Below are positions 34,297 through 55,796 of a DNA stretch of 64,000 nt, in pieces. The DNA lies in contig JAHIZV010000218.1 of NCBI GenBank assembly GCA_018814445.1, positions 2,285-66,284 on the forward strand, read 5' to 3'. The DNA comes from Verrucomicrobiota bacterium (lineage in GTDB: Bacteria > Verrucomicrobiota > Kiritimatiellia > JAHIZV01). A program made the translations under genes and the position numbers. How positions within the stretch are numbered: position 1 is the stretch's first letter; each line of letters starts with the position of its first letter. A model generated the notes under the pieces. The model was not told the DNA's origin. It saw nothing but the letters and a program-made list of their open reading frames with translations, and searched no databases.

Positions 34297-34306
34297 TTTA
34301 CGTAAA
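34297..34306. promoter_or_regulatory. Palindromic box TTTACGTAAA(G), site 1, about 70 bp upstream of the TPR/GH99-like operon. A half-site TTTACG follows about 11 nt downstream.
   Basis: Perfect 10-bp palindrome, identical to the sites at ~35418, ~42328 and ~55787. Confidence 0.45.
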
Positions 34307-34317
34307 GTCGGGCGTAT

Positions 34318-35373
34318 TTACGCGCTCTGCGGGAGCGTGCTCTTCCCTTCCCGCCAGGTCCCTTCAATCTCCATTCTCACAGGCTGGGCAGGAATCCCCT
34401 TCTGGCCGCGCTGAATCGAGGCGACGAGCATATCGACCGCTGCCGCGCCGACGAGATGCGAGTTCTGGTCAATGCCGCTGACGTCCGGAAACAGCTTGCT
34501 GTCTCCATCAATATCCAGTGAAGCGTAGCCGACCTCTCCGGGGATATCGGAACCTCTGTTCTGAAGCAATTCCAAGCCGAAATGTGCAACGCCAATGACA
34601 ACGTCCGGTGCGTAGCGGTCAAACCAAGTGTTAAACTTGATCTGGTCTGCATTGCTCATCAGCAGAGGCGGGGGCATCTTCTTACCGCGCCTGTGACGAT
34701 ACTGAAGAAAGGCGGCCGTCCATTTTCCATTCACGCGCAGGTCAAGCGCATCTTCCATTACAAGACCGATCGCCCGGTAGTTGAGTCCGGAAAGCTCATC
34801 GAGCAGCTTGAGCATGGAAGTATACTGGTCATGGATCGAACGATCCAAATCCGGCGACTCGACAGTTTCGCTGATCTCAACAACAGAGAAAGGACTGAAA
34901 TCGAGGTGGATTGAACGGGGTTCTTTCTTAGAGAGTTTCCCCTGCAGAGGGGCGACGATCACGCCTTCGATGCCCCGATTCCAGATGATGTTGCCCAGGC
35001 GCGACGGGCTCATGCCGGGTTCGTTCAGCCAGAATACTTCGATGCGGTAGCCGTATTCCTTCGCGCGCTGCATGGCGCCTTCCACATACTTCCGCTCCGT
35101 GGCGAACCTCTTCCAGTCTTCTGCCGTTTTGCCCGAGGTAAGAAGGGCAAGACAGGCTCTTGTATCGTCCGGCAACTTGCTCCGAATGTGTGACATAAGT
35201 TTTGCAACTTCCGGATCGGGTTCGTATCCCAGTTGCTCGGCCGCCCTCATCACTTTTCGCCGCGTCTCTTTGGAAACCCCGGGCTTGCCCCGGAGCGCCA
35301 GTGACACAGCCATGCGCGTAACGCCCGTTTTCGCAGCTATCTCGCGCAGCGTGATTTTGTTTCCAGAACCCAT
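34318..35373 (-). CDS. LacI-family transcriptional regulator
   Basis: N-terminal HTH 'ITLREIAAKTGVTRMAVSLALRGKPGVSKETRRKVMRAAEQLGYEPD'. C-terminal periplasmic-binding-fold sugar-binding domain. Confidence 0.9.
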   Translation of the reverse strand: MGSGNKITLREIAAKTGVTRMAVSLALRGKPGVSKETRRKVMRAAEQLGYEPDPEVAKLMSHIRSKLPDDTRACLALLTSGKTAEDWKRFATERKYVEGAMQRAKEYGYRIEVFWLNEPGMSPSRLGNIIWNRGIEGVIVAPLQGKLSKKEPRSIHLDFSPFSVVEISETVESPDLDRSIHDQYTSMLKLLDELSGLNYRAIGLVMEDALDLRVNGKWTAAFLQYRHRRGKKMPPPLLMSNADQIKFNTWFDRYAPDVVIGVAHFGLELLQNRGSDIPGEVGYASLDIDGDSKLFPDVSGIDQNSHLVGAAAVDMLVASIQRGQKGIPAQPVRMEIEGTWREGKSTLPQSA

Positions 35374-35417
35374 GGCAAGCCCTTCCTAGGATGGAATCAT
35401 TCTAGAATCCTCATGCG

Positions 35418-35427
35418 TTTACGTAAA
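35418..35427. promoter_or_regulatory. Palindromic box TTTACGTAAA(G), site 2, in the divergent promoter between the LacI-family gene and the PL1-like gene
   Basis: 'GCGTTTACGTAAAGCTC'. About 45 bp upstream of the regulator start and about 95 bp upstream of the 35522 gene. Confidence 0.5.
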
Positions 35428-35521
35428 GCTCAGACCCGCTATATGTTGTGTCCGAATGCCGCTACTGTTCTATTACCAAAATTTTCAGAATCGCTTCCTC
35501 CAGTAGCCAGTATGGATCGCT

Positions 35522-38155
35522 ATGCGCATATCGTTCAATAAAGAGATACTGCAGCGCATTACTCTGATTACATGTGTTTCTGTCGCCGCGACTGTCTCCA
35601 CTGCAAGTCAGACACTCCTCGTAGACTTCGGTAACAACTTATCGTTTCGAGGAACGAATGTGGTGAGTCCAGACTCAAACGGACATTACTGGAACAGCGT
35701 CCATTCCGCTGTGTACCACGCGGACATGGTCGATATCTCGAATAACACGACCACGGTGGATCTGGGATTCGATGCCGCGCCGGGAACGGACTTCTTCAAC
35801 GGTCCCTCCGGCACGAACGAGAATCCGGCGCTCTCCGAGTATGATGCGACTGCGCTCGGCGACCTTGGTGTGGATGAGGCGGTTTACGACTACTACGTCT
35901 CGTCGCGTTTTCAGGTCCAGGGCCTCGACACGGGGCGGACCTACAGCCTTACGTTCTTCGGTTCACACAAGTTCAGCGCGGATGATGCGACCGTCTACTC
36001 GGTCTACAGCAACACGAACTACACACAGGTCGTCGCTTCCGTCAGCCTGAACGTTCAGACGCCGGGATCGGCGTGGCTGCACAACAGCAACACGGTCGCC
36101 GTCATCAGCAACCTGGTGCCGCAGACCGGCAACATCCTGTATGTCGGCTTTGAAGGAAGCACCGGCGACAGCGGATACCTCAATGCGATGAAGATTGAAA
36201 GCGCTCCGCAGTCCGGCCCGCCCAGTCTCGAAGCTTATGTGAATCCCATGAACGGCAACGTTCCGGTTCCGAGGGAAACAAGGGTGGACGCCGACGAGAC
36301 GCGGAAGCTCGCGTTTCCCAGCGCGCGGGGATTCGGAAGGTTTGCCGACCCGGATATCGGGCCCGGACAGGACTTTGACGCGATCAAGGTGACTAACCTG
36401 CTTGATAGCGGGCCCGGTTCGTACCGCGACGCCATCATGTCCACGAACGGCCCGCGTGTAGTGATTTTCACTGTCAGCGGCACCATTGATCTCACCGAAA
36501 CCGTCCTGATGAGGGAGCCGCAGGACAACGTCTACGTTGCGGGCCAGACCAGTCCGGGAGGCATCCAGCTCAAATGCAGCGGCAACAATGAAAAAGCGCC
36601 GCTGCGCGCCGTCCGCACGCGGGACATCATTGCCCGTTTTCTGAAACTGCGGCCCGGGCTGGATCATGCGTTGAGTTCGGACGTCGACTCGCTCGCCATG
36701 AATGATGTTGAGAACAGCATCTTCGATCATCTCAGCCTGCAGTGGTCCACCGACGAGGCGGCACACATTACGTCGAAGGGCGACGGCGTCACGCTGCAAT
36801 GGTCGCTTCAATCCGAGCCGCTGCGCTGCGGCCCCTGCCGGAGCGATAATCATTCCCAGCACGATTACGGGGTCTTCTCCGACGTGAACAAGAACCTCAC
36901 GCTGTACAAGAACTTCTTCATGGGCGGGCGCTGGCGCAACCCGAATGTTCAGGCCACGAACGCGCTCGAGATGATCAACAACGTCGGCTACAACTACGGC
37001 GAGTACGCGGCGCAATTCTATGTGAATGCCACGCGCGGAAACCTTATCGCCAACATCATCGGCAACTGGTACTCAAAGGGCCCGCGTACCGCGGGCGACC
37101 CGCATATGCTCTTCGCGTCCTACGAGGGTTCGTCCAGCCACGGCTTCGAATTCTATGTGGATGGAAACATCGGCATGAGGGACACCTCGGGCGTGTGCAA
37201 CATCAACTTCCTCGCGCCTCATTTGACGAGTCCCGTCATGGAACAGAACGGAACACTGCTGACCCCGGACGGTCAGACCGGCATAGTTTTTGCGGTGGCC
37301 AGGGCGGACGGGTTGTCCATTCCCGCTGAAGATATCGTGTCCGCCGATCAGGCCATGAAAGATGTCATCGTTGGCGCGGGCGCCATGCAGGACATGTTCA
37401 GTACGCCGAGACGGGATCTCGTGGACGCGCGTTCCATGGGTCAGTTCCAGAACTGCGATGATACGGGCTACACGCCTCAGCCCGATCCGCTCGATGCGAT
37501 TCCGGCGCCCGGCTATCCGGATCTGACAACGAATACCACCTGGTCGTGGACGACCAATGACGTCGACGATGACGGCATGCTCGACGCCTGGGAGACGCTT
37601 TATGCTGATCTGAGCCTTGTCCCGAACGGTGATCCTGACGGGGACGGCTGGTCTAACATGGAAGAGTTCCTCAACTATATGGCGGGCGAGCACATTCAGT
37701 GGACCGGGACGGGTGATCCCGTCCTGGTCCCGCCCGTGTACTGCGGCTACCCGGTGGGGGTGCAGCCGACCGCCGACATGGACAGCGACGGCCTGCCGGA
37801 TGGATGGGAGTGGTTCCATTTCGGTCAAACGGACCATCCGAACGGGGAGCCCCACATCGATTGGGACGGCGACGGACACTCGAACCTTCAGGAGCTGTAC
37901 GCGGGAACGAACCCGACGAACGCATCATCGATCTTCATGATCAAAGAGGTGTCCCCGTCCGGAGACACGTACGAGGTCACCTGGCTGAGCGCGTCCGGCA
38001 AAACCTATGCCATCTACCGCACCGATGATCTCGTTTCCGGCTGGACCAATGCGGCATCGACCAACCACATTTCCGCCAGCCCCTCGGGCACAAACACCTG
38101 GTTCGATACACAGGCGCCAACCCACGGGGCGAGCTACCGCGTCAGGGTGGAGTAG
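35522..38155 (+). CDS. Secreted multidomain polysaccharide lyase (PL1 pectate-lyase-like) with an N-terminal 'DFG-YWNS' domain and the shared dockerin/TSP3-like plus beta-tail C-terminal module
   Basis: Signal peptide. N-terminal 'LLVDFGNNLSFRGTNVVSPDSNGHYWNSV ... QGLDTGRTYSLTFFGSHKF ... YLNAMKIE'. PL1-like 'IKVTNLLDSGPGSYRDAI ... VVIFTVSGTIDL', 'IFDHLSLQWSTDEAAHI', 'FMGGRWRNPNVQATNALEMINNVGYNYGEY'. C-terminal 'DPDGDGWSNMEEF', 'WDGDGHSNLQELYAGTNP', tail '...YAIYRTDDLVSGWTN...ASYRVRVE'. Confidence 0.7.
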   Translation: MRISFNKEILQRITLITCVSVAATVSTASQTLLVDFGNNLSFRGTNVVSPDSNGHYWNSVHSAVYHADMVDISNNTTTVDLGFDAAPGTDFFNGPSGTNENPALSEYDATALGDLGVDEAVYDYYVSSRFQVQGLDTGRTYSLTFFGSHKFSADDATVYSVYSNTNYTQVVASVSLNVQTPGSAWLHNSNTVAVISNLVPQTGNILYVGFEGSTGDSGYLNAMKIESAPQSGPPSLEAYVNPMNGNVPVPRETRVDADETRKLAFPSARGFGRFADPDIGPGQDFDAIKVTNLLDSGPGSYRDAIMSTNGPRVVIFTVSGTIDLTETVLMREPQDNVYVAGQTSPGGIQLKCSGNNEKAPLRAVRTRDIIARFLKLRPGLDHALSSDVDSLAMNDVENSIFDHLSLQWSTDEAAHITSKGDGVTLQWSLQSEPLRCGPCRSDNHSQHDYGVFSDVNKNLTLYKNFFMGGRWRNPNVQATNALEMINNVGYNYGEYAAQFYVNATRGNLIANIIGNWYSKGPRTAGDPHMLFASYEGSSSHGFEFYVDGNIGMRDTSGVCNINFLAPHLTSPVMEQNGTLLTPDGQTGIVFAVARADGLSIPAEDIVSADQAMKDVIVGAGAMQDMFSTPRRDLVDARSMGQFQNCDDTGYTPQPDPLDAIPAPGYPDLTTNTTWSWTTNDVDDDGMLDAWETLYADLSLVPNGDPDGDGWSNMEEFLNYMAGEHIQWTGTGDPVLVPPVYCGYPVGVQPTADMDSDGLPDGWEWFHFGQTDHPNGEPHIDWDGDGHSNLQELYAGTNPTNASSIFMIKEVSPSGDTYEVTWLSASGKTYAIYRTDDLVSGWTNAASTNHISASPSGTNTWFDTQAPTHGASYRVRVE

Positions 38156-38248: not shown

Positions 38249-41200
38249 CTACTGAGCCTGAACGCCAAGGCGGATATAGATCTTCCGCTCGGTCAGCGGA
38301 ACCAGATTGCTGACCGCATCGAAGTTGGGATCGGCTGCGCTCGTGGCTGAGAGTTCTGTGTAGCCGGCGTTGGTCCAGCTTCCTGCCAGCAGGTTCGTGC
38401 GCGACTGAAGGAAGTATGTGATGCCGCTGTCGATGCGGCGCGCGTATGTGTAGTGCACGACACTGGATCCGCCGGAGTCGGCGATCTCGATAGCGGGCAG
38501 GTAGCCGGTATCGAGTCCATTGGTCGGAACGCCTCCGAATCCAAATTCTCCAAGATTGAGAAGACCGTCACCGTCGTCGTCCGCATATCGCCCGCCGAGG
38601 CCGGGATAATCCAGCGCCCATTTCTCATAGGCAAAGGGAATGTCTCGGGCTTCGATCAGCATGGCATTCAGATAGCCTTCATTGCCGGCGGATCCTTTGA
38701 ATCCGACGTAGATCTTGTTGTCGTCATGCACGAGCAGGTTCGTGATAACGGCCACCGTGTTGCTGTTGTGCAGTTCAGATGAACCGGGCGTCTGAACGTT
38801 GAGCGTCGCGGAAGTGATCACGGTCGAGTAATTCGTGCCGGAGTAGATCGTGTAAACCGTCGCGTCGTCGGTGCTGAACTTGTGTGAGCCGAATAGGGTC
38901 AGATCATAGGTCCGGCCCGGATCCAGTCCCTGGATTTGAAACTTCGATGACACGTAGTAGTCGTTCACAGCGGCGTAAGAGCCGCCGATCAGTCCGAGCG
39001 CATTGGTATCGACGGCGTTCGTCGGCCCATTGAAACTGTCGCTGCCCGGCGCGTCGTCAAATCCAAGATTTATGCCGGTCGCAGTATTTGTTCTGTCGAT
39101 CAGGTTGGCATTGAACGCGCCGGACCAGACGCTGTTCCAGTAACTGCCTTTGCCATCGGGGTTGGAAACGGAAGTCCCGCGAAACGAGCTGTCCGCTCCA
39201 AAGTCGATCAGAATAGGACCGTGCTTTGGGGTTGTGGTTCTGACGGCGGCGCGTCCGTGCCAGAGGTGGCTGTTGGTGCCGCTTGAGCCCAGTGACACGG
39301 TCAGCACATTACTCTGCACGTTGGTCCAGGCCGCTGGCTGCCCTTCCAGCTGCACCGCGACAGGTCCGTCAAAGCCTGCCGGGAGTACCATCGTTGCGTT
39401 CGTGTCACCGACGGAATAGATCCAGAATTCGACACCCGCGCTGTTCGTCTGAACGACATAGGCGAGGCTATCAGACTTGCCGGGCGGAATGATGCAGGCG
39501 GCCAGCATGTCCGGCGACTCGGCGATGTAGCCGTACGGGGCGAGCGTCCAACCGTTCGTGCTCATCGGATTCGGACCCAGGTTGGCGGTTACTTCAACCG
39601 TACCGTATTTCGCCGCGATGAAGCCGTTGTCGGTATCGACCGCATTCGTTCCCCAATGATGCTCGAAGGAATAGACGGGTTCTCCGATGTAGCGCGCACA
39701 GACTGTTTTCTGCAGCCGGTCGATCCAGTACAACCATTGGCGGATCGGCGTACTCTCAACTTCTTCATCCCTGACGACATACGTCATGCCGTAACCGAGT
39801 CCCAAGGTCCATGCTGCGACTTCATGGTTGTGGACCGCGCCGCTGAGGTTGTTGTAGACCATCGACAGCTTGTCGTGGGCTATATGCTGTGCCAGGGGGA
39901 ATATAGTCCACGCCTTTGTCGAGTAGCGTTCACGCAGATACCTGCGCCAGAAGGGAGCGTTGGTGGTGGGCGCAAGTCCCCAGGCCAGTCCGCAGAACTG
40001 GGCTTCGTGGTTCACCAGCCGGTCGAAACCGTTTTCGGTCGATACCGGCATATACTCGCTGTCTTCGGCCGCGATGGCTGCGAGACCGGAGATGTAGGCA
40101 TGTGGCGCCGGGGAGTTGGTGTTCATGTCGTACTGTCCGGTACGCGCACCGATCTGATCATGGAAGATTATGTCCACGGGGTAATTCGTGATGAACAGTC
40201 CGCGCGTGTGTCGATTTGCAACCTGCACATCAGGATGCCACGGTGTGACGGTGTACCCGCCCTCTCCGAAGTACTCTTCAAATGAGAGTGATCCGTCCGG
40301 ATCGCGCAGAAGAGGATCTTCGCCCTTCGCAGTAAATGTTGGTCCGCGAGGATCCTCTCCCCAGAAAGTAGGATTGGTATACGGCATGACCATCTGGTCA
40401 TTGTCTTTCGCCTGTGCGAGCAGATTCGTGAACTCGGCCGATGTCCCGAACGTCGCGTTTGGAGGCAAGTGATCCGGGTATTGCTTGTCGAATCCTCCGT
40501 AGAGGTACTGTGCCAGATGAATGATTGAGGGTGAGGGCAGCTGGGAAAGCCGCTCAGTGAGACCGGTGGCTGTACCCAGACTGTTGATCAGCACCGAGTG
40601 TTTGAATGTGTTCAGTGTCGATGCCGACATCTTGTTCGTCAGCGTGCGGACAAAACCGTTCGCGCTGCTGTATGCAGCTAGTGAGTTCTCAACGGTCTCA
40701 CCAAGCACAAGCCTCACGACAGGCGACTGCCACGTTGTGTTTGTCTCCACATACGGGGTGAAAGCACGCTGGAAATATCCTCCTGTTGCATCGGCTCCCC
40801 ATTCAAGTCTTCCCGGAATGAACAGCGTCGCGGGATTCGTTGAGCCTGACCACGGATCGGCAGGAACGGGCTGAACGCCGTACAGCGAAGAGTTGCCGTT
40901 AGTCGTTTCGAGCTGGAAAAAGTCGGCGAATGCCGGCGGATAAAGTATGTTGTTCGTGTAATAGAGATTCGGCTGCAGAGCCTGATAGAAAGCATAACCG
41001 GCGACTTCGAACCAGTGACCGCCCGACTGAATATAGTTCCCAACCTCCGCAACCGTGGCAGACACGCCGCCTCCGAGGGACGCGGGCACGAGCTCGCCAT
41101 ATGGATTAAGGATCGCCAGGACATTCGTATTGGCCAACGCGTTGGTCATTTCGTCGACGTTGGTCAGTTCGAGAATATCTATTCCATTCGCGACAAGACT

Positions 41201-42280
41201 GGTCGAGGCATGTAGACGACCGAGCCACTGGTCGATTCGGACCTCTGACGGCCACGATTCACCGATCACCGGTCCGCGTTCCATGCTGAGTACGGCCAAA
41301 TTGGTTCGCCCGCCGGATGTCTGTGCGAGGTGCTCGATTGCGGCCACTACGACGTCCAGTGAGAATTCGACGCGCGTGGCGTCCACGAGGCCGCCGATAC
41401 GCATCAGCCAGCCGGCGCCGGCTCCGCCGCCGAGGTGACTGCCCGAGAAGAAGGCTCCGTGGGGCGAATCGAGTAGAATCACATCCGCCTGCCCACTTGC
41501 CGGAGGACGGTGAACAGTCGCGCTAGCAGAGGCCCATTTGTTGGACAAGTCGCTCCCCAACCACGCGACGCCGTCGGTCGTGAAGTTGAGCGCGACCACA
41601 TCGTAATTCGTGATAACAGCGGAACTGCCGTACAAGCTGACGTATCCTGCAGGACCAACCGATGTCTGCTTCCAGCTAGCCGGATCGTCTTCGGTCTGAA
41701 TTAGAAAGTAGTTCGTGTTGTACGCCATCCCAACGCCGTCGCTGGAATGGTTCGGCGCGATGAAACGCTTCATGACGGAAGGTTCAAAGCGGAGGAGTGC
41801 CGGCAGAACCAATTGGGTCACCGCGTTCGAGGCTGTATCGACCGCTGCTGACATGTCTATGCCGTCATCACGATTTGAGATCGTAATGCTGATAGCGTAC
41901 TCAACGTTACTGTACGTCAGGTAAAGGCTGTTGCTCGGAGCAGGGAGAGACCAGGAGAACGTGTCGGTGGGTGATGTCGAAGAGAAGATCGCGGCGTTGA
42001 CAGTTCCGCGGATGCCGAGCGCAGTGTTCGTATATGACAGGGACCAGAGCCCCTCTGCACCGCTTCGGGCAATGTCGCCATTGCCGGCCGTGATGGATTT
42101 GATCGATCCGTTCGTGTCATTGATAAGAACGCTATGACTGGTGCCCGTGAAAAGGAAACCTTCGGCAGTATGTTGAATGCCCGCAACGACCGTGTTCGCC
42201 GCAAGCCCGAGGCACACGGCCACCATCGCTGCAGTGGCACCTGTTCGCGGCACGCTGCGACGCATGAATACAAATTGCAT
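38249..42280 (-). CDS. Giant secreted protein with an unassigned glycoside-hydrolase-like central region, a C-terminal 'DFG-YWNS' domain and the shared dockerin-like/beta-tail module. The track start at 42319 is an alternative.
   Basis: Signal 'MQFVFMRRSVPRTGATAAMVAVCLGLAANTVVAG'. Central 'MVMPYTNPTFW ... VDIIFHDQIGAR ... YISGLAAIAAEDSEYMPVSTENGFD'. Then 'ILIDFGADSSFRGTSVSNPDGKGSYWNSVW ... QGLDPGRTYDLTLFGSHKF ... YLNAMLIE'. Ends 'DDDGDGLLNLGEFGFGGVP ... YFLQSRTNLLAGSWTN ... KIYIRLGVQAQ'. Confidence 0.7.
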   Translation of the reverse strand: MQFVFMRRSVPRTGATAAMVAVCLGLAANTVVAGIQHTAEGFLFTGTSHSVLINDTNGSIKSITAGNGDIARSGAEGLWSLSYTNTALGIRGTVNAAIFSSTSPTDTFSWSLPAPSNSLYLTYSNVEYAISITISNRDDGIDMSAAVDTASNAVTQLVLPALLRFEPSVMKRFIAPNHSSDGVGMAYNTNYFLIQTEDDPASWKQTSVGPAGYVSLYGSSAVITNYDVVALNFTTDGVAWLGSDLSNKWASASATVHRPPASGQADVILLDSPHGAFFSGSHLGGGAGAGWLMRIGGLVDATRVEFSLDVVVAAIEHLAQTSGGRTNLAVLSMERGPVIGESWPSEVRIDQWLGRLHASTSLVANGIDILELTNVDEMTNALANTNVLAILNPYGELVPASLGGGVSATVAEVGNYIQSGGHWFEVAGYAFYQALQPNLYYTNNILYPPAFADFFQLETTNGNSSLYGVQPVPADPWSGSTNPATLFIPGRLEWGADATGGYFQRAFTPYVETNTTWQSPVVRLVLGETVENSLAAYSSANGFVRTLTNKMSASTLNTFKHSVLINSLGTATGLTERLSQLPSPSIIHLAQYLYGGFDKQYPDHLPPNATFGTSAEFTNLLAQAKDNDQMVMPYTNPTFWGEDPRGPTFTAKGEDPLLRDPDGSLSFEEYFGEGGYTVTPWHPDVQVANRHTRGLFITNYPVDIIFHDQIGARTGQYDMNTNSPAPHAYISGLAAIAAEDSEYMPVSTENGFDRLVNHEAQFCGLAWGLAPTTNAPFWRRYLRERYSTKAWTIFPLAQHIAHDKLSMVYNNLSGAVHNHEVAAWTLGLGYGMTYVVRDEEVESTPIRQWLYWIDRLQKTVCARYIGEPVYSFEHHWGTNAVDTDNGFIAAKYGTVEVTANLGPNPMSTNGWTLAPYGYIAESPDMLAACIIPPGKSDSLAYVVQTNSAGVEFWIYSVGDTNATMVLPAGFDGPVAVQLEGQPAAWTNVQSNVLTVSLGSSGTNSHLWHGRAAVRTTTPKHGPILIDFGADSSFRGTSVSNPDGKGSYWNSVWSGAFNANLIDRTNTATGINLGFDDAPGSDSFNGPTNAVDTNALGLIGGSYAAVNDYYVSSKFQIQGLDPGRTYDLTLFGSHKFSTDDATVYTIYSGTNYSTVITSATLNVQTPGSSELHNSNTVAVITNLLVHDDNKIYVGFKGSAGNEGYLNAMLIEARDIPFAYEKWALDYPGLGGRYADDDGDGLLNLGEFGFGGVPTNGLDTGYLPAIEIADSGGSSVVHYTYARRIDSGITYFLQSRTNLLAGSWTNAGYTELSATSAADPNFDAVSNLVPLTERKIYIRLGVQAQ

Positions 42281-42327
42281 CGTCACATCATTCACTATCG
42301 TCTCCCGGGCGTTAAACATGGGGATGC

Positions 42328-42337
42328 TTTACGTAAA
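42328..42337. promoter_or_regulatory. Palindromic box TTTACGTAAA, site 3, in the divergent promoter between the two giant genes
   Basis: 'TGCTTTACGTAAACTTA' between the minus-strand gene ending at ~42280/42319 and the plus-strand SGNH gene. Confidence 0.5.
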
Positions 42338-42397
42338 CTTATGCAGTTTGCCGAACTGTTGAAGAGCCGGGACCATGCGAGTTATATTTGTCTCTAT

Positions 42398-47527: not shown

Positions 47528-47579
47528 GATCTGCTGGCATGAAATCATTGCCATGTCGCTTCATCTATATCTGCGCAAC

Positions 47580-47589
47580 TTTACGTATA
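47580..47589. promoter_or_regulatory. Imperfect copy of the palindromic box (TTTACGTATA) in the divergent promoter between the pseudopilin gene and the 47646 gene
   Basis: 'CAACTTTACGTATAGCCG': 9/10 match to TTTACGTAAA. Confidence 0.3.
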
Positions 47590-48215: not shown

Positions 48216-50125
48216 CCTGCTTCCGGCGGACAGAGCAGCAGCGAGAAGGTGCAGGTTACGGGACCGTTCTCTATCCTGAGGAGAATCGTATTGAATCCCT
48301 GATCGAAATGGACCCGGCGGAAGCCTTCATCAATGCGCCACGGGCTGAAGCCGCGGTCCTGCCAGATGACGGTGTCGTTGATCCACACTTTTGCCGCGTC
48401 GTCTGAGGCGACGGCAACAATCATCTCGGTGGGTTCCTCGAAATACACCTCCGTATACCCGTAGTACGTCGAGCCCTCCATTTCCCGGGGCGGCTTGATG
48501 CGGATATTGTCGCTCTGATGAAATTGCCAGCGGATAACCTGATCGTTCTTGCCGACATATTCGGCGTCCAGGTCGACCAGCGTTTCCGGTGGAAGCGGAT
48601 CGTCGAAACCTGTCCGCCAGCCGTTCTCCCAAGGTCCTATCACATACCACGTGTCGATGTATAACCAGCCCGTTCGCGGGCTGTTGCGGTTGAACTTGCG
48701 TCCGGGGAGCGCCTGCTTCAGAACTTCCTCCTCGGAAAGCCGCGATGGACCGCGCGCCTGCCGCACCTCATCGCTCTGACCGGCGAAACCGGTCCGGATG
48801 CTTTTATGCGTGATATCCTGTCCGCCGCCGACCGCTCCGAAAGAAGCGTTGTCGCCGGTGTGGTTCTGCATGAACGGGCTCACGTCCACGTAGCGTCCCA
48901 GGTTTCCGCGAGCGGCATTCGCCAGCACAGCGGCCCGGCCTGCCGCGCCCTGCGTGCCCTCACCCTTTCCCTGCGCGCCCTCTCCGCCTTTCATACCGGC
49001 GATCTTCCTGCCGGTCTGTCCCATATTCTGTGCCTGCTGCCACATGTCGTGTACGTCACGCTCGGCCCGGTCCAGACCGGCTCGATACGCGTTCAGTTCC
49101 GCGATGGTCCGGGGCGGATCAGGCAGTGTGCCGGGCGAGAACTGCCGGGTTGGAGGCGGCACGCTGACGGCCTGCCAGGCGTCAGCCAGCGGCTTGTTCT
49201 CGTTCATCGCAATGTCCGCGGCCTTGACGGCTGTGAACAGCGCCTCGATATCCTCCTGCAATCCCGCGGCGGCCTCGTGCAGTTCGGGAACAGACATTCC
49301 CTCCAGCGATTGCTCCCAGTCCGGTTCGAGCGGACCCGGCGGTTCGTAACGTTCCGGGAGGTCATTCATTTCTTCCAACTCAAACGCTTCCACCTCGCGC
49401 AGAAGCCCGCTGATCTGATCGCGCGTGTAATTGACAAGGTACGCGACATGGTTGTCGTGGCGGACACGCTCTTCGTCCTGCACATACGCTTTCTGCGCTT
49501 CATCCAATTGCCGTATATACTCGTCCTGTCGGGAGCAGGTGATGCCGTGCGAGTCGCGAACGCGCTGCAGTACGCTGGGCAGGATGAGTCTTTCCGGCGC
49601 CGCCGTTACTCGCGTTTCGAAATCGGTCGATGCTGTGTGTACGAGCGGCGCAGCGGAAAGATCGGATTCACGATCCTGATTCTCCGCCCGCTCCACAAGC
49701 TGCGTGGTCAGCGGGTAGAGTTGATAGTAGAAGAACATACTTACGTCCTCAAATGAACGTACCTTGACTTCATCGAGTTGCAGCCGCTCCGCTTCCTGGA
49801 GTTCATCGCGGACTCGCTTCATGTCCTTGAGACGCTCTATCATCTTCTTCGCGCGTTTCTCTTCCTCGCCCCGCTTCAACTTCGTTGCGTCGTCCTCGCG
49901 CAGTTCCGTCCGATCGCGCTCCCGCCGCTTCCTTTCCTCCAGCCTCTTCAGGCGCTGCTGCGCCTGTTCATCGAGCTCCCGCACGTCAGCGGCCGTTTGT
50001 TCGAGCCGGCTCACCCGCAACGCGTCGATCGACACAAAGAGCAGGACAAGCGCAGCCTGAAGCGCAGCCGAGACGGCGAGAATGACCGGAAGGCGAACCC
50101 GTTTATCTGGTGTTGTAGAATTCAT
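48212..50125 (-). CDS. TolA/TonB-like membrane-anchored coiled-coil protein with a C-terminal jelly-roll (galactose-binding-domain-like) domain. It is the last gene of the exbB-exbD-exbD operon.
   Basis: N-terminal TM 'RLPVILAVSAALQAALVLLFV'. A long K/R/E-rich coiled coil follows ('EQAQQRLKRLEERKRRERDRTELRE ... EEEKRAKKMIERLKD'). C-terminal 'AKVWINDTVIWQDRGFSPWRIDEGFRRVHFDQGFNTILLRIENG' resembles the GH2-N/GBD sugar-binding beta-sandwich. Overlaps exbD by ~23 nt. Confidence 0.55.
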   Translation of the reverse strand: MNSTTPDKRVRLPVILAVSAALQAALVLLFVSIDALRVSRLEQTAADVRELDEQAQQRLKRLEERKRRERDRTELREDDATKLKRGEEEKRAKKMIERLKDMKRVRDELQEAERLQLDEVKVRSFEDVSMFFYYQLYPLTTQLVERAENQDRESDLSAAPLVHTASTDFETRVTAAPERLILPSVLQRVRDSHGITCSRQDEYIRQLDEAQKAYVQDEERVRHDNHVAYLVNYTRDQISGLLREVEAFELEEMNDLPERYEPPGPLEPDWEQSLEGMSVPELHEAAAGLQEDIEALFTAVKAADIAMNENKPLADAWQAVSVPPPTRQFSPGTLPDPPRTIAELNAYRAGLDRAERDVHDMWQQAQNMGQTGRKIAGMKGGEGAQGKGEGTQGAAGRAAVLANAARGNLGRYVDVSPFMQNHTGDNASFGAVGGGQDITHKSIRTGFAGQSDEVRQARGPSRLSEEEVLKQALPGRKFNRNSPRTGWLYIDTWYVIGPWENGWRTGFDDPLPPETLVDLDAEYVGKNDQVIRWQFHQSDNIRIKPPREMEGSTYYGYTEVYFEEPTEMIVAVASDDAAKVWINDTVIWQDRGFSPWRIDEGFRRVHFDQGFNTILLRIENGPVTCTFSLLLCPPEAG

Positions 50126-50528
50126 CGTAGGTGCGAATGCCCACATTGACCAGGCCGTTGAACCTGCAGAGATCGAGTACTTCGATCACGCGGTGAGTCG
50201 GCGTATCCCGGTCGACATCGAGCCGGATCTGCACGTCAGGCTCCTTGACCCCGACCTCTCTGATTTCTGTGTGAAGCGATTGAATCGTCGTCTCTTCTCC
50301 TTCGAAAAAGACGTCCCCGTCCTCATTGATACCGATGACGTAGTTGTCATCGGACGGCATCATCCTTTCCGCGGAGGTGGATTCGGGCAGTTCAATGTCG
50401 ATGTCGCGGTTGATCTTCCTGATCATCGTTGAGACGAGAAAGAAGATCAGCAGGAGAAAGACTGCATCGATCAAAGGCGAAAGCGGAATGCCTTCGTCTT
50501 CGTCATTGTCCTGTCGGCCTGTCAGCAT
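50103..50528 (-). CDS. exbD: Biopolymer transport protein ExbD/TolR (copy 2)
   Basis: 'IPLSPLIDAVFLLLIFFLVSTMI' single-TM ExbD/TolR signature. 141 aa. Confidence 0.85.
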   Translation of the reverse strand: MLTGRQDNDEDEGIPLSPLIDAVFLLLIFFLVSTMIRKINRDIDIELPESTSAERMMPSDDNYVIGINEDGDVFFEGEETTIQSLHTEIREVGVKEPDVQIRLDVDRDTPTHRVIEVLDLCRFNGLVNVGIRTYDEFYNTR

Positions 50529-50532
50529 GTGG

Positions 50533-51000
50533 TTACTCTTCGAACGGCTGGCGGATCTTGACGCTCACGTTCATGAAGCCGCGTAGTTTGCAGATGTCGA
50601 GAGCGTCGATCGTCCTTTGAAACGGCGTCTCGCGGGCGATGTCGAAACGTATGGGGCGAAGGAGCACTTCCGGACCTATGTCCCGCGCAAGCCGGTCGAG
50701 GTACTGGTCGAGTGTAGTGCCTCCCTGATATGAAAGGGCTCCGAAGCGGTCGCGTCCTGCGGGTTCGAGAAACGCACCGTCCCCGGACAGGCCGATGATC
50801 AGGGTGTCGTCGCGGGCTTCCGCGGACAGCGCCGAAGACGAGTCGGGCATGGTAATCGGAATCATCGTCTCCTTGCGCTTCAGCATCGTTGTCACTAGGA
50901 AGAAGATCAGCAGAAGGAACACGCAGTCGATCAGCGGGGACAGCGGAACATCCGCTTCATCTTCCACGCCGGGAACCCTTCTGTTGCGGCGGTAGAGCAT
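50533..51000 (-). CDS. exbD: Biopolymer transport protein ExbD/TolR (copy 1)
   Basis: 'VPLSPLIDCVFLLLIFFLVTTML'. 155 aa. 4-nt spacers on both sides. Confidence 0.85.
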   Translation of the reverse strand: MLYRRNRRVPGVEDEADVPLSPLIDCVFLLLIFFLVTTMLKRKETMIPITMPDSSSALSAEARDDTLIIGLSGDGAFLEPAGRDRFGALSYQGGTTLDQYLDRLARDIGPEVLLRPIRFDIARETPFQRTIDALDICKLRGFMNVSVKIRQPFEE

Positions 51001-51004
51001 GGGT

Positions 51005-51718
51005 TCAGGCGCCGGGCTTCTTCAGCAGCCAGGCGTTGATGAGGCGGTCCATCTCCTCGTCCAGCAGACGACCGAGGGACTGGATTTTGAATTTAAACAG
51101 GTGGTACAGGCCCAGAGAGGGAATGGCTATGATCAGTCCGAGCGCAGTGGTAATCAAAGCCTTGGAGATGCTGCCCGCGAGAATCGTCGCCCCACCCTCG
51201 TCGCCATAGATCTCTACGAGTTTGAAAGATTCGATCATACCGATAATGGTGCCGAGGAGTCCGAGCAGCGGAGCAAGTCCGGCAATCACCGCCAGCCCGT
51301 ACGCCTTCTTCTGTTCGTTAAGCAGTTCTCGATTGCCGATATCCGACGCGCCCTGAATGAGCAGTTCAGGGGGAGCTTCACGATGCTCGGCCAGGAAGGC
51401 TGCCATCCGGCTGATGGTCGAGGGGTGTTTCTCGCAGTACTCGTGCAGCTGCTGAAAACGCCCTGCGTGCCAGAGCGGAAGAACACTTTGCGTGAACTCT
51501 GCGGACACGATCCTTGCCGCCCGTAGATTGATCACCCTTTCGACTGCGATCGTTACCATCACAAACGTGAGAATGAACAGCGCGATGCCTGTGTTTCCCC
51601 CTTTTGTCAGTTCGTGAAGCCAGTCAATTTCGGCCGAAATCGTCTCCCCTCCCGAAACCTGCGCGAATGTGGTGAGAGGAGTTGTCAGGAAGATAAGAGT
51701 AGCCCATCGATACAACAT
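51005..51718 (-). CDS. exbB: MotA/TolQ/ExbB proton-channel protein
   Basis: Three TM helices. C-terminal 'LGLLGTIIGMIESF ... ALITTALGLIIAIP' MotA/TolQ/ExbB signature. The start codon abuts the stop of the upstream beta-helix gene. Confidence 0.85.
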   Translation of the reverse strand: MLYRWATLIFLTTPLTTFAQVSGGETISAEIDWLHELTKGGNTGIALFILTFVMVTIAVERVINLRAARIVSAEFTQSVLPLWHAGRFQQLHEYCEKHPSTISRMAAFLAEHREAPPELLIQGASDIGNRELLNEQKKAYGLAVIAGLAPLLGLLGTIIGMIESFKLVEIYGDEGGATILAGSISKALITTALGLIIAIPSLGLYHLFKFKIQSLGRLLDEEMDRLINAWLLKKPGA

Positions 51719-53470
51719 CTACATGTCCCTCCGCGTCGTGATATCCTGCTTGACCGTGAAGCCGGAGCCGCTCTCGTTGTTGATTAAACCGGAGGCCTCG
51801 CCTTCTGTGTCGAGGCCGATGATAACGAGCGAGCCCTGTGCGTTCGGCAGAATGTGAATACCTTCTGCTTTAAGCTTCTTGAGGCGGACATTACGAATCT
51901 CAGCATCGGCGACACGTTTCGGGCCCTGAACGCTGATTGCCGCGCCGTAGGGATCTTCGATATCCACGCCGGCGATCCGCACAGGTATCTCGATGTCCCG
52001 CTCCGGGGCGTGAAGCCATAGTCCACCGACGGACGAGCCGAAATAGCTCTCGCTTCCGGTTTGAATGAGCCGGTTGGACTGGATAACAATCGTGCCCCCA
52101 AAGGGCTCGGCCCCGTGTCCGGTGCTGAGGGTGATACCGGCTCCCGCATACACGTTCCCTATGACGGTATTGCCGATCACCCGATGATTACTTCCCCCGT
52201 AAATCGCGATGCCGTTTGCGAGCCAGGGGATCTCAACACGGTTATGCAGGAAGACGTTGCTGCTGCAGGGAACGCCCGAGGCCCATGAGGCTGTCGGCGA
52301 CCATGTAGCCAGACCGTCATCGCCGGTATTGCGGATATGCGAGCGCTCAACCCTGCACCTGCTTGATCCATCGCAGAAGTTGATACCATCCGCCATGGTA
52401 TTGCGAATACGGCAGTCGATAATCCGCAGATCACGAGTGCCGGGCGTGGACCATACACCGCATTTCACATGTTCGATCCACAAACGTTCCAGCAGGCTCC
52501 CCTCGCCCAGGTTGCCGTTGAAAGCATTATCAGCGGTCGCGTCGAACCTCTGATCGATATTTCCGAAAATCGCCAGATCACTCATCCGGAAGGTCTCCCC
52601 GTTGCCGCGGAATAGAACCGCGGAACCGGTCAGTCTGCTATGCCACATTCCGGAGCCCTGAATGGCAACTCCGCCCAGTGTGATGGGTGAGCCGTCGAGT
52701 CGGTAAGTTCCCGGCGGAATCCAAACGGTACGCCCCTCGTCTTTGGCCTGCTGGATTGCAGCAAGAAACGCGGGAGCGTCGTTGATGCCATCGTCCGCCT
52801 TCGCGCCATGATTGGTGATGGAAAGACTGTCTGCGGGTGCGGCGATTGGCGGCGGGACCTGTTCCAGTTCGATGAGATCGACGAGGTAGTAGGCGGCGGA
52901 ATCACCTTCGTCTATTTGCAGCCGCAATGTATCCCCGGGCTTTACCGCGTCAATCTGCGCATGGCTTTCGTCGAAGAACCGGTGCGGTTTCCCGTGGTCA
53001 GGGTGATTGAACCAGGGGAATCGACCGTAGACCCAGGCATAGCGGGACGACAGTTCCATTTTCTGCAGAAACTCGTCGTTCCGATACAGGCTCAGGGTTG
53101 CGTCGGTGCCGCGGCCCTCCGGCGCATCGGGAATCGAGGCCCGGACAACGATCGTGTTGGCGGGCTCGGTTACCTCGACTTCCACGAAGTCACCCATGTT
53201 CTCGAGGCGGACATAGCTTTTGCCCGAGGCTTCCGCTTCGGGGGTCAGATACTTACGGGAAGGGCCGTGCAAAGCGCCCTGGAACTGCCCGCTTTCGGCT
53301 TCATACGAAACCCAGGGAAACGGATCGGCGAGGCCCATCCCTTCCGGCGGCGCGGATGGCGGAGTAACGCATCCTCCCGCAGCCAGGAGAAAGCCGCCGC
53401 AAAGGCAAAGCCGCAAAGCAGCGAGGGCTGGTTGAATGCTTCTATGGTTCTTCTGGTGTCGATCCATCAT
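51719..53470 (-). CDS. Lipoprotein with an N-terminal CBM6/CBM35-like domain and a right-handed beta-helix (pectin-lyase-fold) catalytic-like domain. It is co-transcribed with exbB-exbD-exbD.
   Basis: Lipobox 'LAAGGCV'. 'VSYEAESGQFQGALHG ... ASGKSYVRLENMGDFVEVEV' (CBM6/35-type 'YEAE ... ASG'). Beta-helix repeats 'NTMADGINFCDGSSRCRV', 'NTGDDGLATWS', 'NGIAIYGGSNHRVIGNTV'. Confidence 0.7.
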   Translation of the reverse strand: MMDRHQKNHRSIQPALAALRLCLCGGFLLAAGGCVTPPSAPPEGMGLADPFPWVSYEAESGQFQGALHGPSRKYLTPEAEASGKSYVRLENMGDFVEVEVTEPANTIVVRASIPDAPEGRGTDATLSLYRNDEFLQKMELSSRYAWVYGRFPWFNHPDHGKPHRFFDESHAQIDAVKPGDTLRLQIDEGDSAAYYLVDLIELEQVPPPIAAPADSLSITNHGAKADDGINDAPAFLAAIQQAKDEGRTVWIPPGTYRLDGSPITLGGVAIQGSGMWHSRLTGSAVLFRGNGETFRMSDLAIFGNIDQRFDATADNAFNGNLGEGSLLERLWIEHVKCGVWSTPGTRDLRIIDCRIRNTMADGINFCDGSSRCRVERSHIRNTGDDGLATWSPTASWASGVPCSSNVFLHNRVEIPWLANGIAIYGGSNHRVIGNTVIGNVYAGAGITLSTGHGAEPFGGTIVIQSNRLIQTGSESYFGSSVGGLWLHAPERDIEIPVRIAGVDIEDPYGAAISVQGPKRVADAEIRNVRLKKLKAEGIHILPNAQGSLVIIGLDTEGEASGLINNESGSGFTVKQDITTRRDM

Positions 53471-53981
53471 CTTCCTCCACCGGTATGAGGATAAACTTCA
53501 TGCTCAGCCAGGCCTGGCTGAGCGGATCATACTGCACCTTGTCGGTTCCGGAATTCTCAAGGCTGATATAGGCTGTCTTCTGCCACAGGTTGTGAATCCG
53601 GCAGAAGGAGCCCTCAAGCACCAGGTTCCAACGGAAGCTGAGGAAAGTGGGCTCCATCGAAGAGACCTCAACAAAGCCTTCACGCCCTTCGATATTCAGC
53701 GCGTCTCCGGTCACCCGGTTACGAATCCAGTATCCCGGCGCGTCGGGGATGACCTCGAGATACCAATGGCCTCGCTGATCGTCCGCCTTCAATCCGGCGT
53801 CGTACAGAAGAAAGCGGCTGCCCTCCTGCTGGTACAGGCAGGCATCTCCGTAAAGGCCCTTCACCCGCACGAAGAGCGGCGAGTCCTCGCCTACGAATTC
53901 CTCAACGGTTAGGGCTAGTGATAACGGCGCAGCGATGGCGAGGATCGCCAAGGCAAAGAGGAAGTAGCGAAATCTAAGCAT
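53442..53981 (-). CDS. Hypothetical secreted protein, first gene of the operon
   Basis: Signal 'MLRFRYFLFALAILAIAAPLSLA'. Its 3' end overlaps the next gene by ~29 nt. Confidence 0.45.
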   Translation of the reverse strand: MLRFRYFLFALAILAIAAPLSLALTVEEFVGEDSPLFVRVKGLYGDACLYQQEGSRFLLYDAGLKADDQRGHWYLEVIPDAPGYWIRNRVTGDALNIEGREGFVEVSSMEPTFLSFRWNLVLEGSFCRIHNLWQKTAYISLENSGTDKVQYDPLSQAWLSMKFILIPVEEDDGSTPEEP

Positions 53982-54071
53982 ACGTGTCTCTCCTTAACTG
54001 TTGCAGATACTAGTTTCCAAAAAGGTCGCGTGCAACGTGATAGTGGCCGGTGTAGAAGCATGGGTTCGTTA

Positions 54072-54287
54072 TCAATCAAAATGCCGCATAACCGGTTTCG
54101 GCGAACGGTCCTCATAGCACAATCCCCAGTGCTTCCTGAGTATCGCCAGATCCTCTTTGATCTGTTCGCAAGAAGGGTAGATGTTCTCTCGAGGATTCTG
54201 TCCCGCACGATACCCGGAACAGCAGATGGCGTTGCAGAAATAGGCTCCCGTCAATTCGGTCAATTTGTCTGCCGGAGTCTTGTTCAT
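54072..54287 (-). CDS. Possible small Cys-containing protein (71 aa) immediately downstream of the GH1 gene
   Basis: RBS GAGGTG 7 nt before the ATG. 5 Cys, including 'CNAICC'. No homology recognised. An overlapping alternative ORF exists on the same strand. Confidence 0.3.
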   Translation of the reverse strand: MNKTPADKLTELTGAYFCNAICCSGYRAGQNPRENIYPSCEQIKEDLAILRKHWGLCYEDRSPKPVMRHFD

Positions 54288-54293
54288 CTTTGA

Positions 54294-55676
54294 TCACCTC
54301 GCGCAAGAAGCGTCATTACTGAGCAGTGCGCCATTGCTCTCTATCAGGTCGCGATACCAGTAGCCGGAATCTTTGATGACCCGCTTCTGAGTGTTGTAGT
54401 TCACATGTATGAGTCCAAAGCGCTGATAGAAGCCTTCCGCCCATTCGAAGTTGTCCATGATGGACCAGTGGAAGTAGCCACGGACATCGACGCCTTCGTC
54501 GATGCTCTCCTTCAGCCCGCGGAGATAGCGCGTTGTGAAGTCGATGCGTTTGGGATCATGCACCTTTCCGTCCACGCAGACCCAGTCATTCAGCGAGAGC
54601 CCGTTCTCGGTGATAATGATCGGTTTATGGTATTCGTCGTAAAGGAACTTCGTAGCCCATCGCAGCGACTGCTCGGTAATCGGCCAGTTGAACTGGGTAT
54701 GCGGATGGTGATTAGGATAGGGCACGACTTCGGGTTTTCCGTCTTCACCGGCTTTGACGGTGCCCGAGGCATAGATGTTCAGCCCCAGGAAATCCAGTTC
54801 CTGTCCGATCAACTCCATGTCGCCGTCCCTGATGGGCGGTCCATCGTCACCCCATGCCGCAAGGCCGTCTTGGGGATAACCGCCGCGGAAGCAGGGATGG
54901 AGGTTCCAGGTCGTGCAGAACACGTCACGTTTCTTGATGTCGAAAAACATGTGACGGGCGGCTTCAATATCCTCGGACGAAGTATTGGCCGGTATATATG
55001 TGTGAAAGCACGGGGCGAAGCCGACCTGCGGGTCCGGCAGCCTGGAATGCGCCCGGATGACTCGAACCGCGCGGCCGTGCGCGAGCATGGTGTTGTGCCA
55101 GACTCTTGTAAGTTCAATGTCGTTCAGTTTGAGGCCGGGGGCATGATGTCCATGCTGATGACCGTTGCCGATGAAGCATGCCGGTTCGTTGAGTGTGAAC
55201 CAGTGGCTGACACGGTCGGAGAGCCGGTCGACAATGAGACGGGTGTATTCTTCGAACCAGAGCGGCGAATCATCGTGCAGCCATCCACCCTTTTCAAACA
55301 GCGCAACGGGGTAGTCCCAATGGAAAAGAGTGACCCATGGCGTGACGCCTGCGCCGAGCAGTTCGTCCACGAGTTGATCGTAGAAGGCGACGCCTGTCTC
55401 ATTTACTTTGCCCGTGCCTTCGGGAAGAACGCGCGGCCACATGATCGAGAGGCGGTAGGCCTGCAGACCTATCTCTTTCATGAGGGCCACGTCTTCCCTG
55501 TAGCGGTTGTAATGATCGCAGGCGACAAAGCCGGTATCGCCCCCGCGGACGAATCCCTCCTTCTTGCAGCACATGTCCCAGACGGACTCGCCGCAACCAT
55601 CAACGCCCTGTGTCGAGCCCTCTATCTGGTAGCTGGCGGCGGCGGCACCCCAGACGAAATCTTTTGGAAAACACAT
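54294..55676 (-). CDS. GH1 beta-glucosidase
   Basis: 'FPKDFVWGAAAASYQIEGS' N-terminal signature. Acid/base 'TLNEP'. Nucleophile 'ITENG'. 460 aa. Confidence 0.9.
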   Translation of the reverse strand: MCFPKDFVWGAAAASYQIEGSTQGVDGCGESVWDMCCKKEGFVRGGDTGFVACDHYNRYREDVALMKEIGLQAYRLSIMWPRVLPEGTGKVNETGVAFYDQLVDELLGAGVTPWVTLFHWDYPVALFEKGGWLHDDSPLWFEEYTRLIVDRLSDRVSHWFTLNEPACFIGNGHQHGHHAPGLKLNDIELTRVWHNTMLAHGRAVRVIRAHSRLPDPQVGFAPCFHTYIPANTSSEDIEAARHMFFDIKKRDVFCTTWNLHPCFRGGYPQDGLAAWGDDGPPIRDGDMELIGQELDFLGLNIYASGTVKAGEDGKPEVVPYPNHHPHTQFNWPITEQSLRWATKFLYDEYHKPIIITENGLSLNDWVCVDGKVHDPKRIDFTTRYLRGLKESIDEGVDVRGYFHWSIMDNFEWAEGFYQRFGLIHVNYNTQKRVIKDSGYWYRDLIESNGALLSNDASCAR

Positions 55677-55786
55677 ATTCTCTTCCTCGCCTCGCTACCG
55701 GTCGAAACGCCGGCGTTCTCCCGATCAGACATGTTGCAGGATGACATATTAACTTGCTGACGGATCGTCGAGAGCTGCGGGTTATA

Positions 55787-55796
55787 TTTACGTAAA
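55787..55796. promoter_or_regulatory. Palindromic box TTTACGTAAA(G), site 5, in the divergent promoter between GH1 and the esterase-GH65-SGNH operon
   Basis: 'TATATTTACGTAAAGTCT'. About 110 bp upstream of the GH1 start and about 80 bp upstream of the esterase start. Confidence 0.5.

Follow-up and report, generated by a model that had tools for sequence, protein, structure and literature searches.

A palindromic candidate operator for a LacI-family regulator in a polysaccharide-utilisation locus of Verrucomicrobiota

A stretch of 64,000 nucleotides from the genome of a Verrucomicrobiota bacterium (assembly GCA_018814445.1, contig JAHIZV010000218.1, positions 2,285 to 66,284; 57% G+C), referred to here as the window, encodes a transcription factor of the LacI family amid genes for glycoside hydrolases, esterases and very large secreted proteins. 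The short palindrome TTTACGTAAA recurs between these genes, and the initial annotation of the window had proposed it as the candidate operator of the LacI-family regulator or, alternatively, of an AraR-like regulator encoded from position 63013 on. The exact copies that it listed (at 34297, 35418, 42328 and 55787) and the copy matching at nine of ten positions (at 47580) were all recovered. The regulator gene and the five sites, numbered as predicted operators, are the following.

34318 to 35373, minus strand: LacI-family transcription factor, 351 aa (PF00356, PF13377, predicted fold)
34297 to 34306: predicted operator 1, aTTTACGTAAAg, exact, 23.0 bits; 11 bp past the LacI stop codon, with the TPR gene, in the same orientation, 72 bp from the site
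35418 to 35427: predicted operator 2, gTTTACGTAAAg, exact, 19.7 bits; 44 bp before the LacI ATG and 94 bp before the gene of an 877-aa beta-helix protein
42328 to 42337: predicted operator 3, cTTTACGTAAAc, exact, 21.7 bits; between the DUF6259 giant (minus) and the SGNH+fn3 giant (plus)
47580 to 47589: predicted operator 4, cTTTACGTATAg, 9/10 match, 19.1 bits; flanked by the DUF1559 pseudopilin-like gene (minus) and, at 47646, the gene of a small secreted protein (plus)
55787 to 55796: predicted operator 5, aTTTACGTAAAg, exact, 22.5 bits; 110 bp from GH1 (minus) and 79 bp from the esterase-GH65 operon (plus)

The four exact copies compare with a mean of 0.02 expected, and none of 100 dinucleotide shuffles reached four; allowing up to one mismatch adds only TTTACGTATA at 47580–47589, for a total of five against 0.57 expected. 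A weight matrix of 14 columns, trained only on sites from other genomes, assigned 19.1–23.0 bits to the five sites and 9.8 bits to the next-best position in the 64 kb; therefore, the window contains exactly five sites. All of them are intergenic, with none inside a gene, and all fall in the 32–64 kb half, the matrix finding no palindrome site in the first 32 kb. The 10-mer was said to be usually followed by G, which is the case at four of the five sites (the fifth, at 42328, has C), and the divergent gene pairs described around four copies do flank the sites at 35418, 42328, 47580 and 55787.

The distances of 25–110 bp to start codons, initially given for every copy, hold at four sites if the first start of each open reading frame (ORF) is taken, and fail at 42328, where the first in-frame ATGs are just 8 and 3 bp off. 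The N-termini that resemble signal peptides begin further in (minus strand, 42280 or 42265; plus strand, 42398 or 42416), and with these starts the site is located 47–78 bp upstream of both giant genes. A 'half-site' at 34317 was also tried as a regulatory site and had to be dropped, because it consists of the hexamer TTTACG, which is not above chance (15 copies in the window, and 16 of its complement, with about 11 expected of each), and because the matrix gives no score at that position.

The protein encoded at 34318–35373 belongs to the LacI/GalR family, as judged from its domains and predicted structure. Residues 8–53 match the helix-turn-helix (HTH) domain PF00356 with 49.1 bits (cut-off 27) and align with the LacI-family chains 4o5a and 3kjx of the PDB, while the C-terminal effector domain, of the type-I periplasmic-binding-protein-like kind (PF13377), is recognized marginally (28.4 bits, cut-off 26.5) and is highly divergent, the PDB sequence matches being almost all confined to the HTH. 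The AlphaFold model (predicted local distance difference test, pLDDT, 80; predicted template modelling score, pTM, 0.72) matches full-length CelR (5ysz) at 1.4e-17 and also LacI (1efa), PurR and CcpA, over about 360 columns with E values of 1e-17 to 1e-15 overall. Leu59, at the hinge position, does not vary among 25 orthologues and corresponds in the alignment to the hinge-region leucine of 3kjx; residues 54–65 are predicted to form a helix, with low confidence. The recognition helix reads G-V-T/S-R-M-A/T-V-S-L-A-L-R, with Arg-Met and Leu to be compared with the Tyr-Gln and Arg22 of LacI. A protein that is 100% identical is found in a Verrucomicrobia metagenome-assembled genome (MAG), and relatives number more than 200.

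The conservation of the palindrome was studied in 80 loci fetched from GTDB species representatives with an alignment of 25 LacI orthologues. The orthologue set proper comprises 33 loci, in which the LacI-family protein is 55–70% identical to that of the window and which belong to Chthoniobacterales, Akkermansiaceae, Methylacidiphilales, Terrimicrobiaceae and other groups. If up to one mismatch is allowed, 28 of the 33 loci have a site in the 250 bp upstream of the LacI gene and 21 of 30 have one in the 250 bp past its stop codon, the latter being the same place as that of the site at 34297 in the window; at one end or the other, every orthologue has conserved a site (33/33), with about 0.004 expected per 500 bp. 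The 33 loci contain 63 exact palindromes in 509 kb, against about 0.14 expected from base composition, and each TTACGTAA octamer found in them is part of the full 10-mer.

The consensus over the orthologue sites is (C>A,G; never T)TTTACGTAAA(G>T,C; never A), with the central C and the central G each present in 92% of 105 sites, and the information per position drops to background beyond ±6 (0.13 bit or less), the flanking sequence being unrelated between loci. By crude ORF-based gene calls, 79% of the 105 sites fall between genes or not far from a 5′ end, compared with 26% of background positions; the remaining ones turned out on inspection to be mostly artefacts of ORF calling (over-extended or antisense ORFs), and only one orthologous position, with one mismatch and inside the GH99-like gene, is clearly coding. 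The gene families that follow the sites in other genomes are also conserved, namely LacI (20 cases), GH87 (14), TPR (10), esterase (7), GH65 (7), GH99-like (7) and a secreted protein, c4 (7). Phylogenetic footprinting of this kind, with a site in all orthologous loci and before the same operons, supports the assignment of the palindrome to the LacI-family regulator as its candidate operator; it likewise sustains the autoregulation that had been suggested for this gene, and operator 2, at 35418, is its predicted autoregulatory site. One Chthoniobacter-like subclade carries GG/CC in place of the central CG (TTTAGGTAAA) upstream of LacI and of other operons (at L011:9950, L013:9949, L014:1580, L017:9964 and L027:9963, given as locus:position, and at more positions of the same loci), so that the CG centre of the family has been lost lineage-wide; at L022:9957 the centre is TG instead of CG.

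That the five copies might be a chance recurrence or the remnant of a repeat element devoid of function is suggested by the shortness of the motif and by nothing else, and is hardly credible in the light of the shuffled sequences and of 63 exact copies at orthologous intergenic positions in 33 genomes with unrelated flanks.

The palindrome is also found next to more distant members of the same LacI subfamily. It flanks paralogues of 34–39% identity in L036, L040, L049, L066 (three sites), L075, L035 and L065, where genes for an AraR-like protein, GH65 and GH87 are all absent. The paralogue loci with the palindrome come from Opitutaceae, Kiritimatiellales, Pontiella, Lentisphaeraceae and Chthoniobacter and have no homologue of the AraR-like protein or of GH87, and a GH65-like match was obtained in L054 alone among the loci searched. 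This distribution argues that the palindrome goes with the type of LacI protein and not with the particular locus. In L075, an Opitutaceae chromosome (OZ245769.1), two adjacent convergent paralogues, which share 46% identity, are both preceded at 75–100 bp by an exact TTTACGTAAA (L075:9913 and L075:12208), with T/A at the ±6 flank, a combination never seen in the orthologue group; this hints that regulators of a single genome may share operators or cross-talk through them. More generally, the ±6 flank is C/G in the orthologue group and T/A or G/C in the paralogue loci, a difference that may matter for specificity. The recognition helix was considered as a predictor of the motif among the 80 LacI relatives and was rejected, near-identical helices being found with and without the motif; thus, helix sequence alone does not explain specificity. 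A distinct palindrome for the paralogues that lack the motif was sought among the k-mers enriched on either side of 21 paralogues and among the palindromes enriched in 19 of those paralogue loci, and only GC-rich or coding-derived words emerged.

A palindrome in divergent intergenic regions could in principle be a promoter element, e.g. a bidirectional −35-like box TTTACG, or the site of another, unlinked global factor. TTTACG agrees with TTGACA at four of six positions, four of the five sites are in divergent promoter regions, and at the lacI promoter (minus strand) the hexamer supplied by the site at 35418 is paired with TAGAAT at a spacing of 17 nt. That is, however, the only match obtained in sigma-70 scans of three regions of the window, such a pair being absent at 34297 and 55787, and no systematic −10 element is found at promoter spacing in 278 oriented flanks (TANNNT at the offset of a 17-nt spacer in 7 of the 278), so that the −35 box was set aside as a candidate. 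Furthermore, neither the remaining 32 kb of the window nor most paralogue loci have the motif, and a specific dimeric factor would be expected to leave a strictly conserved perfect palindrome of 10–12 bp within a single regulon and always next to the same regulator family, a pattern not expected of a core promoter box. A promoter element or unlinked factor is therefore very improbable.

The form of the palindrome can be compared with what is known of LacI-family operators, which are even palindromes with a central CG for 1173 of 1303 factors surveyed, mostly lie at −140 to −30 from the start codon and are usually 16–22 nt long (PMC4052901). With its halves TTTAC and GTAAA the element is perfectly symmetric, even and centred on CG, as the family rule has it, and the sites of the window and of the orthologues, including those of the regulator's own gene, fall mostly in the −140 to −30 zone. 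The initial annotation had taken the central ACGT to fit the operator types of both LacI/GalR and AraR; the even symmetry and the CG centre bear out the first part, while the second fails at the AraR signature positions Pu5/T6 and A11/Py12, where the palindrome has T-T and A-A.

We consider it very probable that the five copies, (C/A/G)TTTACGTAAA(G/T/C), are operators bound by the LacI-family protein 34318–35373, a view drawn from sequence comparison. Several observations weigh against it and have to be set beside those above. The palindrome is informative over 12 bp only, short of the length usual in the family; most paralogues of the subfamily that have the same recognition helix show no such site within 10 kb; and no fixed spacing from the site to a −10 element was seen across the orthologues. 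Its half-site, TTTAC, also differs from the commoner AANC type. The other unfavourable points concern the AraR-like regulator, a second sugar regulator, which many genomes include in the same regulon: loci fetched with this protein often carry the palindrome, some of them with no LacI gene in the fetched 10-kb flanks, and the box of Bacillus AraR, ATTTGTACGTACAAAT, resembles the palindrome in its A/T arms and in a central TACGTA (PMC1950556, PMC3592433), so that motif shape alone does not decide between the two regulators.

These last points would fit a regulon in which the palindrome is the operator of the AraR-like protein, whose orthologue combines a GntR winged helix-turn-helix (wHTH) with a LacI-type sugar domain (Peripla_BP_3), and in which the LacI gene is merely a target. 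Indeed, the esterase-GH65 operon headed by the motif ends with the AraR-like gene in the window, in L020, L031 and L032, and in L092–L099. The position of the palindrome argues otherwise, as it is found within 250 bp upstream of one of 33 AraR-like genes, compared with 28 of 33 LacI genes, and 25 of those 33 AraR-like genes have instead the element GTGTAYA, which fits the GT...AC signature of the GntR family. The positions G5/T6...A11/C12 of the AraR box (GT...AC) are essential (PMC1950556); the palindrome has T where the box needs a purine at position 5, and the GT-Nx-AC order is absent from it. Besides, it adjoins the LacI-subfamily paralogues in loci without an AraR-like homologue (tblastn), and the AraR-like gene is within reach in only six of the 34 LacI-anchored loci, i.e. 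the 33 orthologous loci and the window (the window, L004, L020, L031, L032 and L033). The AraR-like protein, offered by the initial annotation as the alternative binder, is thus disfavoured, and we regard its assignment to the palindrome as quite unlikely.

The element upstream of the AraR-like gene was followed in 27 metagenomic loci fetched with the AraR-like protein and its 10-kb flanks, together with the other loci that carry the gene. Its copy in the window is:

62973 to 62979, plus strand: GTGTATA element, part of ccGGTGTATACt, 34 bp ahead of the ATG (63013) of the AraR-like gene

In the 25 loci with GTGTAYA, which include L020, L031, L032, L092–L100, L103, L106 and L108, there are in 15 cases two copies at a fixed distance of about 20–21 bp, the proximal one about 17 nt from the AraR-like ATG. 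Elsewhere the element is rare, as 1.5 Mb contain 69 matches and 35 of these precede AraR-like genes, and GGTGTATAC, upstream of the AraR-like gene, fits a GT..TA..AC signature. GTGTAYA, which differs from the palindrome, may serve the GntR-type regulator as an autoregulatory operator, or else it may be a special promoter. A tandem GTGT(G/T)TAGAGTGTATA, made of two GTGTATA-like units 10 bp apart, occurs away from the AraR-like gene, at L082:12184, L087:3356, L091:12107, L101:4887 and L022:16785 on the plus strand and at L011:9864, L013:9865, L014:1495 and L017:9879 on the minus strand; apparently upstream of the conserved secreted protein c4 of about 466 aa, these elements may mark further AraR-like targets. 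Another word, TGGTATACCA (with the 12-bp palindrome GTGGTATACCAC), found in five to six orthologous loci, was considered as an AraR-like operator and rejected, because all copies (among them L002:8332, L003:3782, L005:7834, L008:2698 and L015:7837) occupy the same conserved place within the gene of GH87 and are a coding coincidence.

A wider reading of these patterns, which we put forward tentatively and hold to be rather less probable than not, is that of a LacI subfamily specific to the PVC superphylum (Planctomycetes, Verrucomicrobia and Chlamydiae), with the non-canonical recognition helix GV[ST]RM[AT]VSLALR and a compact 12-bp core, TTTACGTAAA, common to several paralogues and discriminated perhaps only at ±6. 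In the alpha-1,3-glucan regulon, this regulator would stand above the GTGTAYA tier of the AraR-like protein in a two-tier circuit for fungal-wall glucan, one that Verrucomicrobiota at large would have conserved.

The genes adjoining the five sites of the window, which are the predicted targets of the LacI-family regulator besides its own gene, are listed here with the evidence for their assignment; searches of Pfam, NCBIfam and PDB sequences bear out most of the gene map of the initial annotation.

32144 to 34224, minus strand: TPR protein (33556–34224) and GH99/GH71-like glycosidase (32144–33499); Pfam, weak PDB matches
35522 to 38155, plus strand: beta-helix protein, 877 aa, with distant pectate-lyase likeness (PDB 9buj 'pectate lyase', 1.3e-14)
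38249 to 42319, minus strand: giant secreted DUF6259 protein, true start probably 42280 or 42265
42341 to 46222, plus strand: giant SGNH/GDSL esterase and fn3 protein, true start probably 42398 or 42416
46210 to 47554, minus strand: DUF1559/N-methyl pseudopilin-like protein (46910–47554, start probably 47527) and a 262-aa protein
48212 to 55676, minus strand: GH1, a 179-aa protein, GH87 (51719–53470), ExbB, ExbD, ExbD and a 644-aa protein (Pfam)
55876 to 64000, plus strand: BD-FAE esterase, GH65 phosphorylase, a 1258-aa SGNH+fn3 giant and the AraR-like regulator (63013 on, cut by the window end) (Pfam)

The regulon had been estimated at about 28 kb, and its span is put here at about 28–32 kb. 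The pair of TPR and GH99-like genes is kept downstream of LacI in 23 loci, the GH99-like protein being the most conserved companion of the regulator. This protein, of 451 aa in the window, has weak Pfam matches to GH99, WbsX and GH71 and matches solved endo-alpha-mannosidases and PDB chains named GH71 only at 1e-7 to 1e-3; if the regulon serves alpha-1,3-glucan, it may represent an uncharacterised type of alpha-glucanase. On the other side of the LacI gene, the beta-helix protein (35522–38155) has no Pfam match above the cut-off, and the 'PL1' label given to it initially, which depends on the modest match to one pectate-lyase structure, is not upheld. Its gene is shared by just two loci.

As for the giants, those of the DUF6259 type are preceded by the motif also in L007 and L022. 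The genes at 42341–46222 and 59152–62928, both on the plus strand and both within the regulon, encode paralogous giants (about 1300 aa) that combine an SGNH/GDSL esterase at the N-terminus with fn3 domains, and the second one occupies the operon slot held by beta-phosphoglucomutase in relatives. The operons of the pseudopilin and a secreted protein have an exact site upstream in L002, L005, L006 and L015, which validates the 9/10 copy at 47580 in the window; the 262-aa protein that follows the pseudopilin gene shows a weak, sub-threshold match to a PEP-CTERM motif.

The genes from 48212 to 55676 probably form one long operon, to judge from their common strand and the short gaps between them, and the site at 55787 is the only one upstream, with no other position of 10 bits or more within the interval. 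The GH87 protein in this run matches PF22815 and PF22816 and the alpha-1,3-glucanases 7c7d (1e-66) and 5zru (3e-64) of the PDB; a motif upstream of GH87 genes accounts for the 14 cases counted above in the orthologous loci. An ExbB-ExbD-ExbD set (50103–51718, minus strand) is placed inside the GH1-GH87 operon, and no TonB-dependent receptor was recognised nearby. Across the intergenic region, the operon of esterase and GH65 has the motif 31–79 bp upstream in seven orthologous loci and again in the metagenomic loci L092–L099, and the closest solved relatives of the GH65 protein are kojibiose and maltose phosphorylases (about 2e-86 and 3e-86, respectively).

A recurring layout, clearest in L020 and L031, places the genes for the AraR-like protein, beta-phosphoglucomutase, GH65 and the esterase on one strand, followed by a site, by an optional GH87 gene with another site, and then by LacI, a site, TPR and the GH99-like gene. 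The 217-aa gene product after GH65 in the relatives is a beta-phosphoglucomutase (TIGR01990, 242 bits, cut-off 189), a neighbour that speaks for the GH65 enzyme being a phosphorylase; a gene for it is absent from the 64-kb window. The association of GH87 and a GH65 nigerose phosphorylase with a LacI gene has been described in the Cphy_1874 region of Lachnoclostridium phytofermentans, where such an arrangement is proposed to serve the use of alpha-1,3-glucan and nigerose (PMC9061262), and the corresponding set of GH87, GH65, beta-phosphoglucomutase and LacI leads us to alpha-1,3-glucan or nigero-oligosaccharides, e.g. of fungal cell walls, as the likely substrate rather than pectin. The same gene content suggests alpha-1,3-glucan or nigerose as the inducer too, in place of the pectin and acetylated oligosaccharides originally named as candidates.

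The comparison shows the sites themselves, their non-random placement between genes, their conservation beside every orthologue and the conserved set of target genes; that the protein binds the sites, that it represses transcription and does not activate it, and which sugar induces the system are what we infer from this. A dimer of the LacI-family protein would bind each even palindrome of 12 bp, its two HTH heads reading the TTTAC half-sites and its hinge helices placed at the central CpG. As most members of the family do, the protein without ligand would repress its targets, here nine transcription units that leave the five intergenic regions, its own gene included; autoregulation would be exerted via the site at 35418, which supplies the −35-like hexamer of the lacI promoter, and a sugar effector, presumably a product of alpha-glucan breakdown, would release the regulator. 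This is a standard local sugar regulon, with a textbook mechanism and a conventional gene switch. As predicted from gene content and site conservation, the regulon is conserved across Verrucomicrobiota and gathers GH87, GH65, GH99/GH71-like enzymes, esterases and pseudopilin-like secreted proteins, together with beta-phosphoglucomutase in orthologous loci.

Transcriptional regulation in Verrucomicrobiota is almost uncharted, and the proposed pair, if correct, would provide a ready operator and repressor for a phylum without genetic tools, besides making CTTTACGTAAAG a simple tag with which to recognise co-regulated polysaccharide loci in MAGs. The tag brings together the unannotated giants, the GH99/GH71-like enzyme and the pseudopilin-like proteins as one functional unit and is, therefore, a pointer to their function. 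It would also delineate a conserved GH87/GH65 route by which Verrucomicrobia of soil, peat and lakes may consume the alpha-1,3-glucan of fungal walls.

With respect to known systems, a full-text literature search returned no regulatory use of the palindrome in bacteria and no LacI regulon described in Verrucomicrobia, and the lineage (Verrucomicrobiota, or PVC) is outside the LacI survey of Ravcheev et al. 2014, in which the word 'Verrucomicrobia' is absent (PMC4052901). The regulator has in common with LacI, PurR, CcpA and CelR the domain architecture, the predicted full-length fold, a leucine at the hinge position and an even palindrome centred on CG, as well as the predicted autoregulation and local control of carbohydrate-utilisation operons, and differs from them in the 12 informative base pairs, the TTTAC half-site, the unusual recognition helix and the divergent effector domain. 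The second regulator of the window has the same chimeric architecture as AraR of Bacillus subtilis, i.e. a GntR wHTH joined to a LacI-type sugar domain, whereas the palindrome lacks the GT...AC positions that are essential in the 16-bp box of the latter. Finally, the cluster of Lachnoclostridium phytofermentans, although in another phylum, likewise links an endo-alpha-1,3-glucanase, a GH65 phosphorylase and a LacI regulator, to which beta-phosphoglucomutase is added in the orthologous Verrucomicrobial loci; no ABC transporter or GH31 gene was seen here, where giant SGNH esterases, the DUF1559 pseudopilin, ExbBD, the GH99/GH71-like enzyme and the AraR-like regulator are found in addition.

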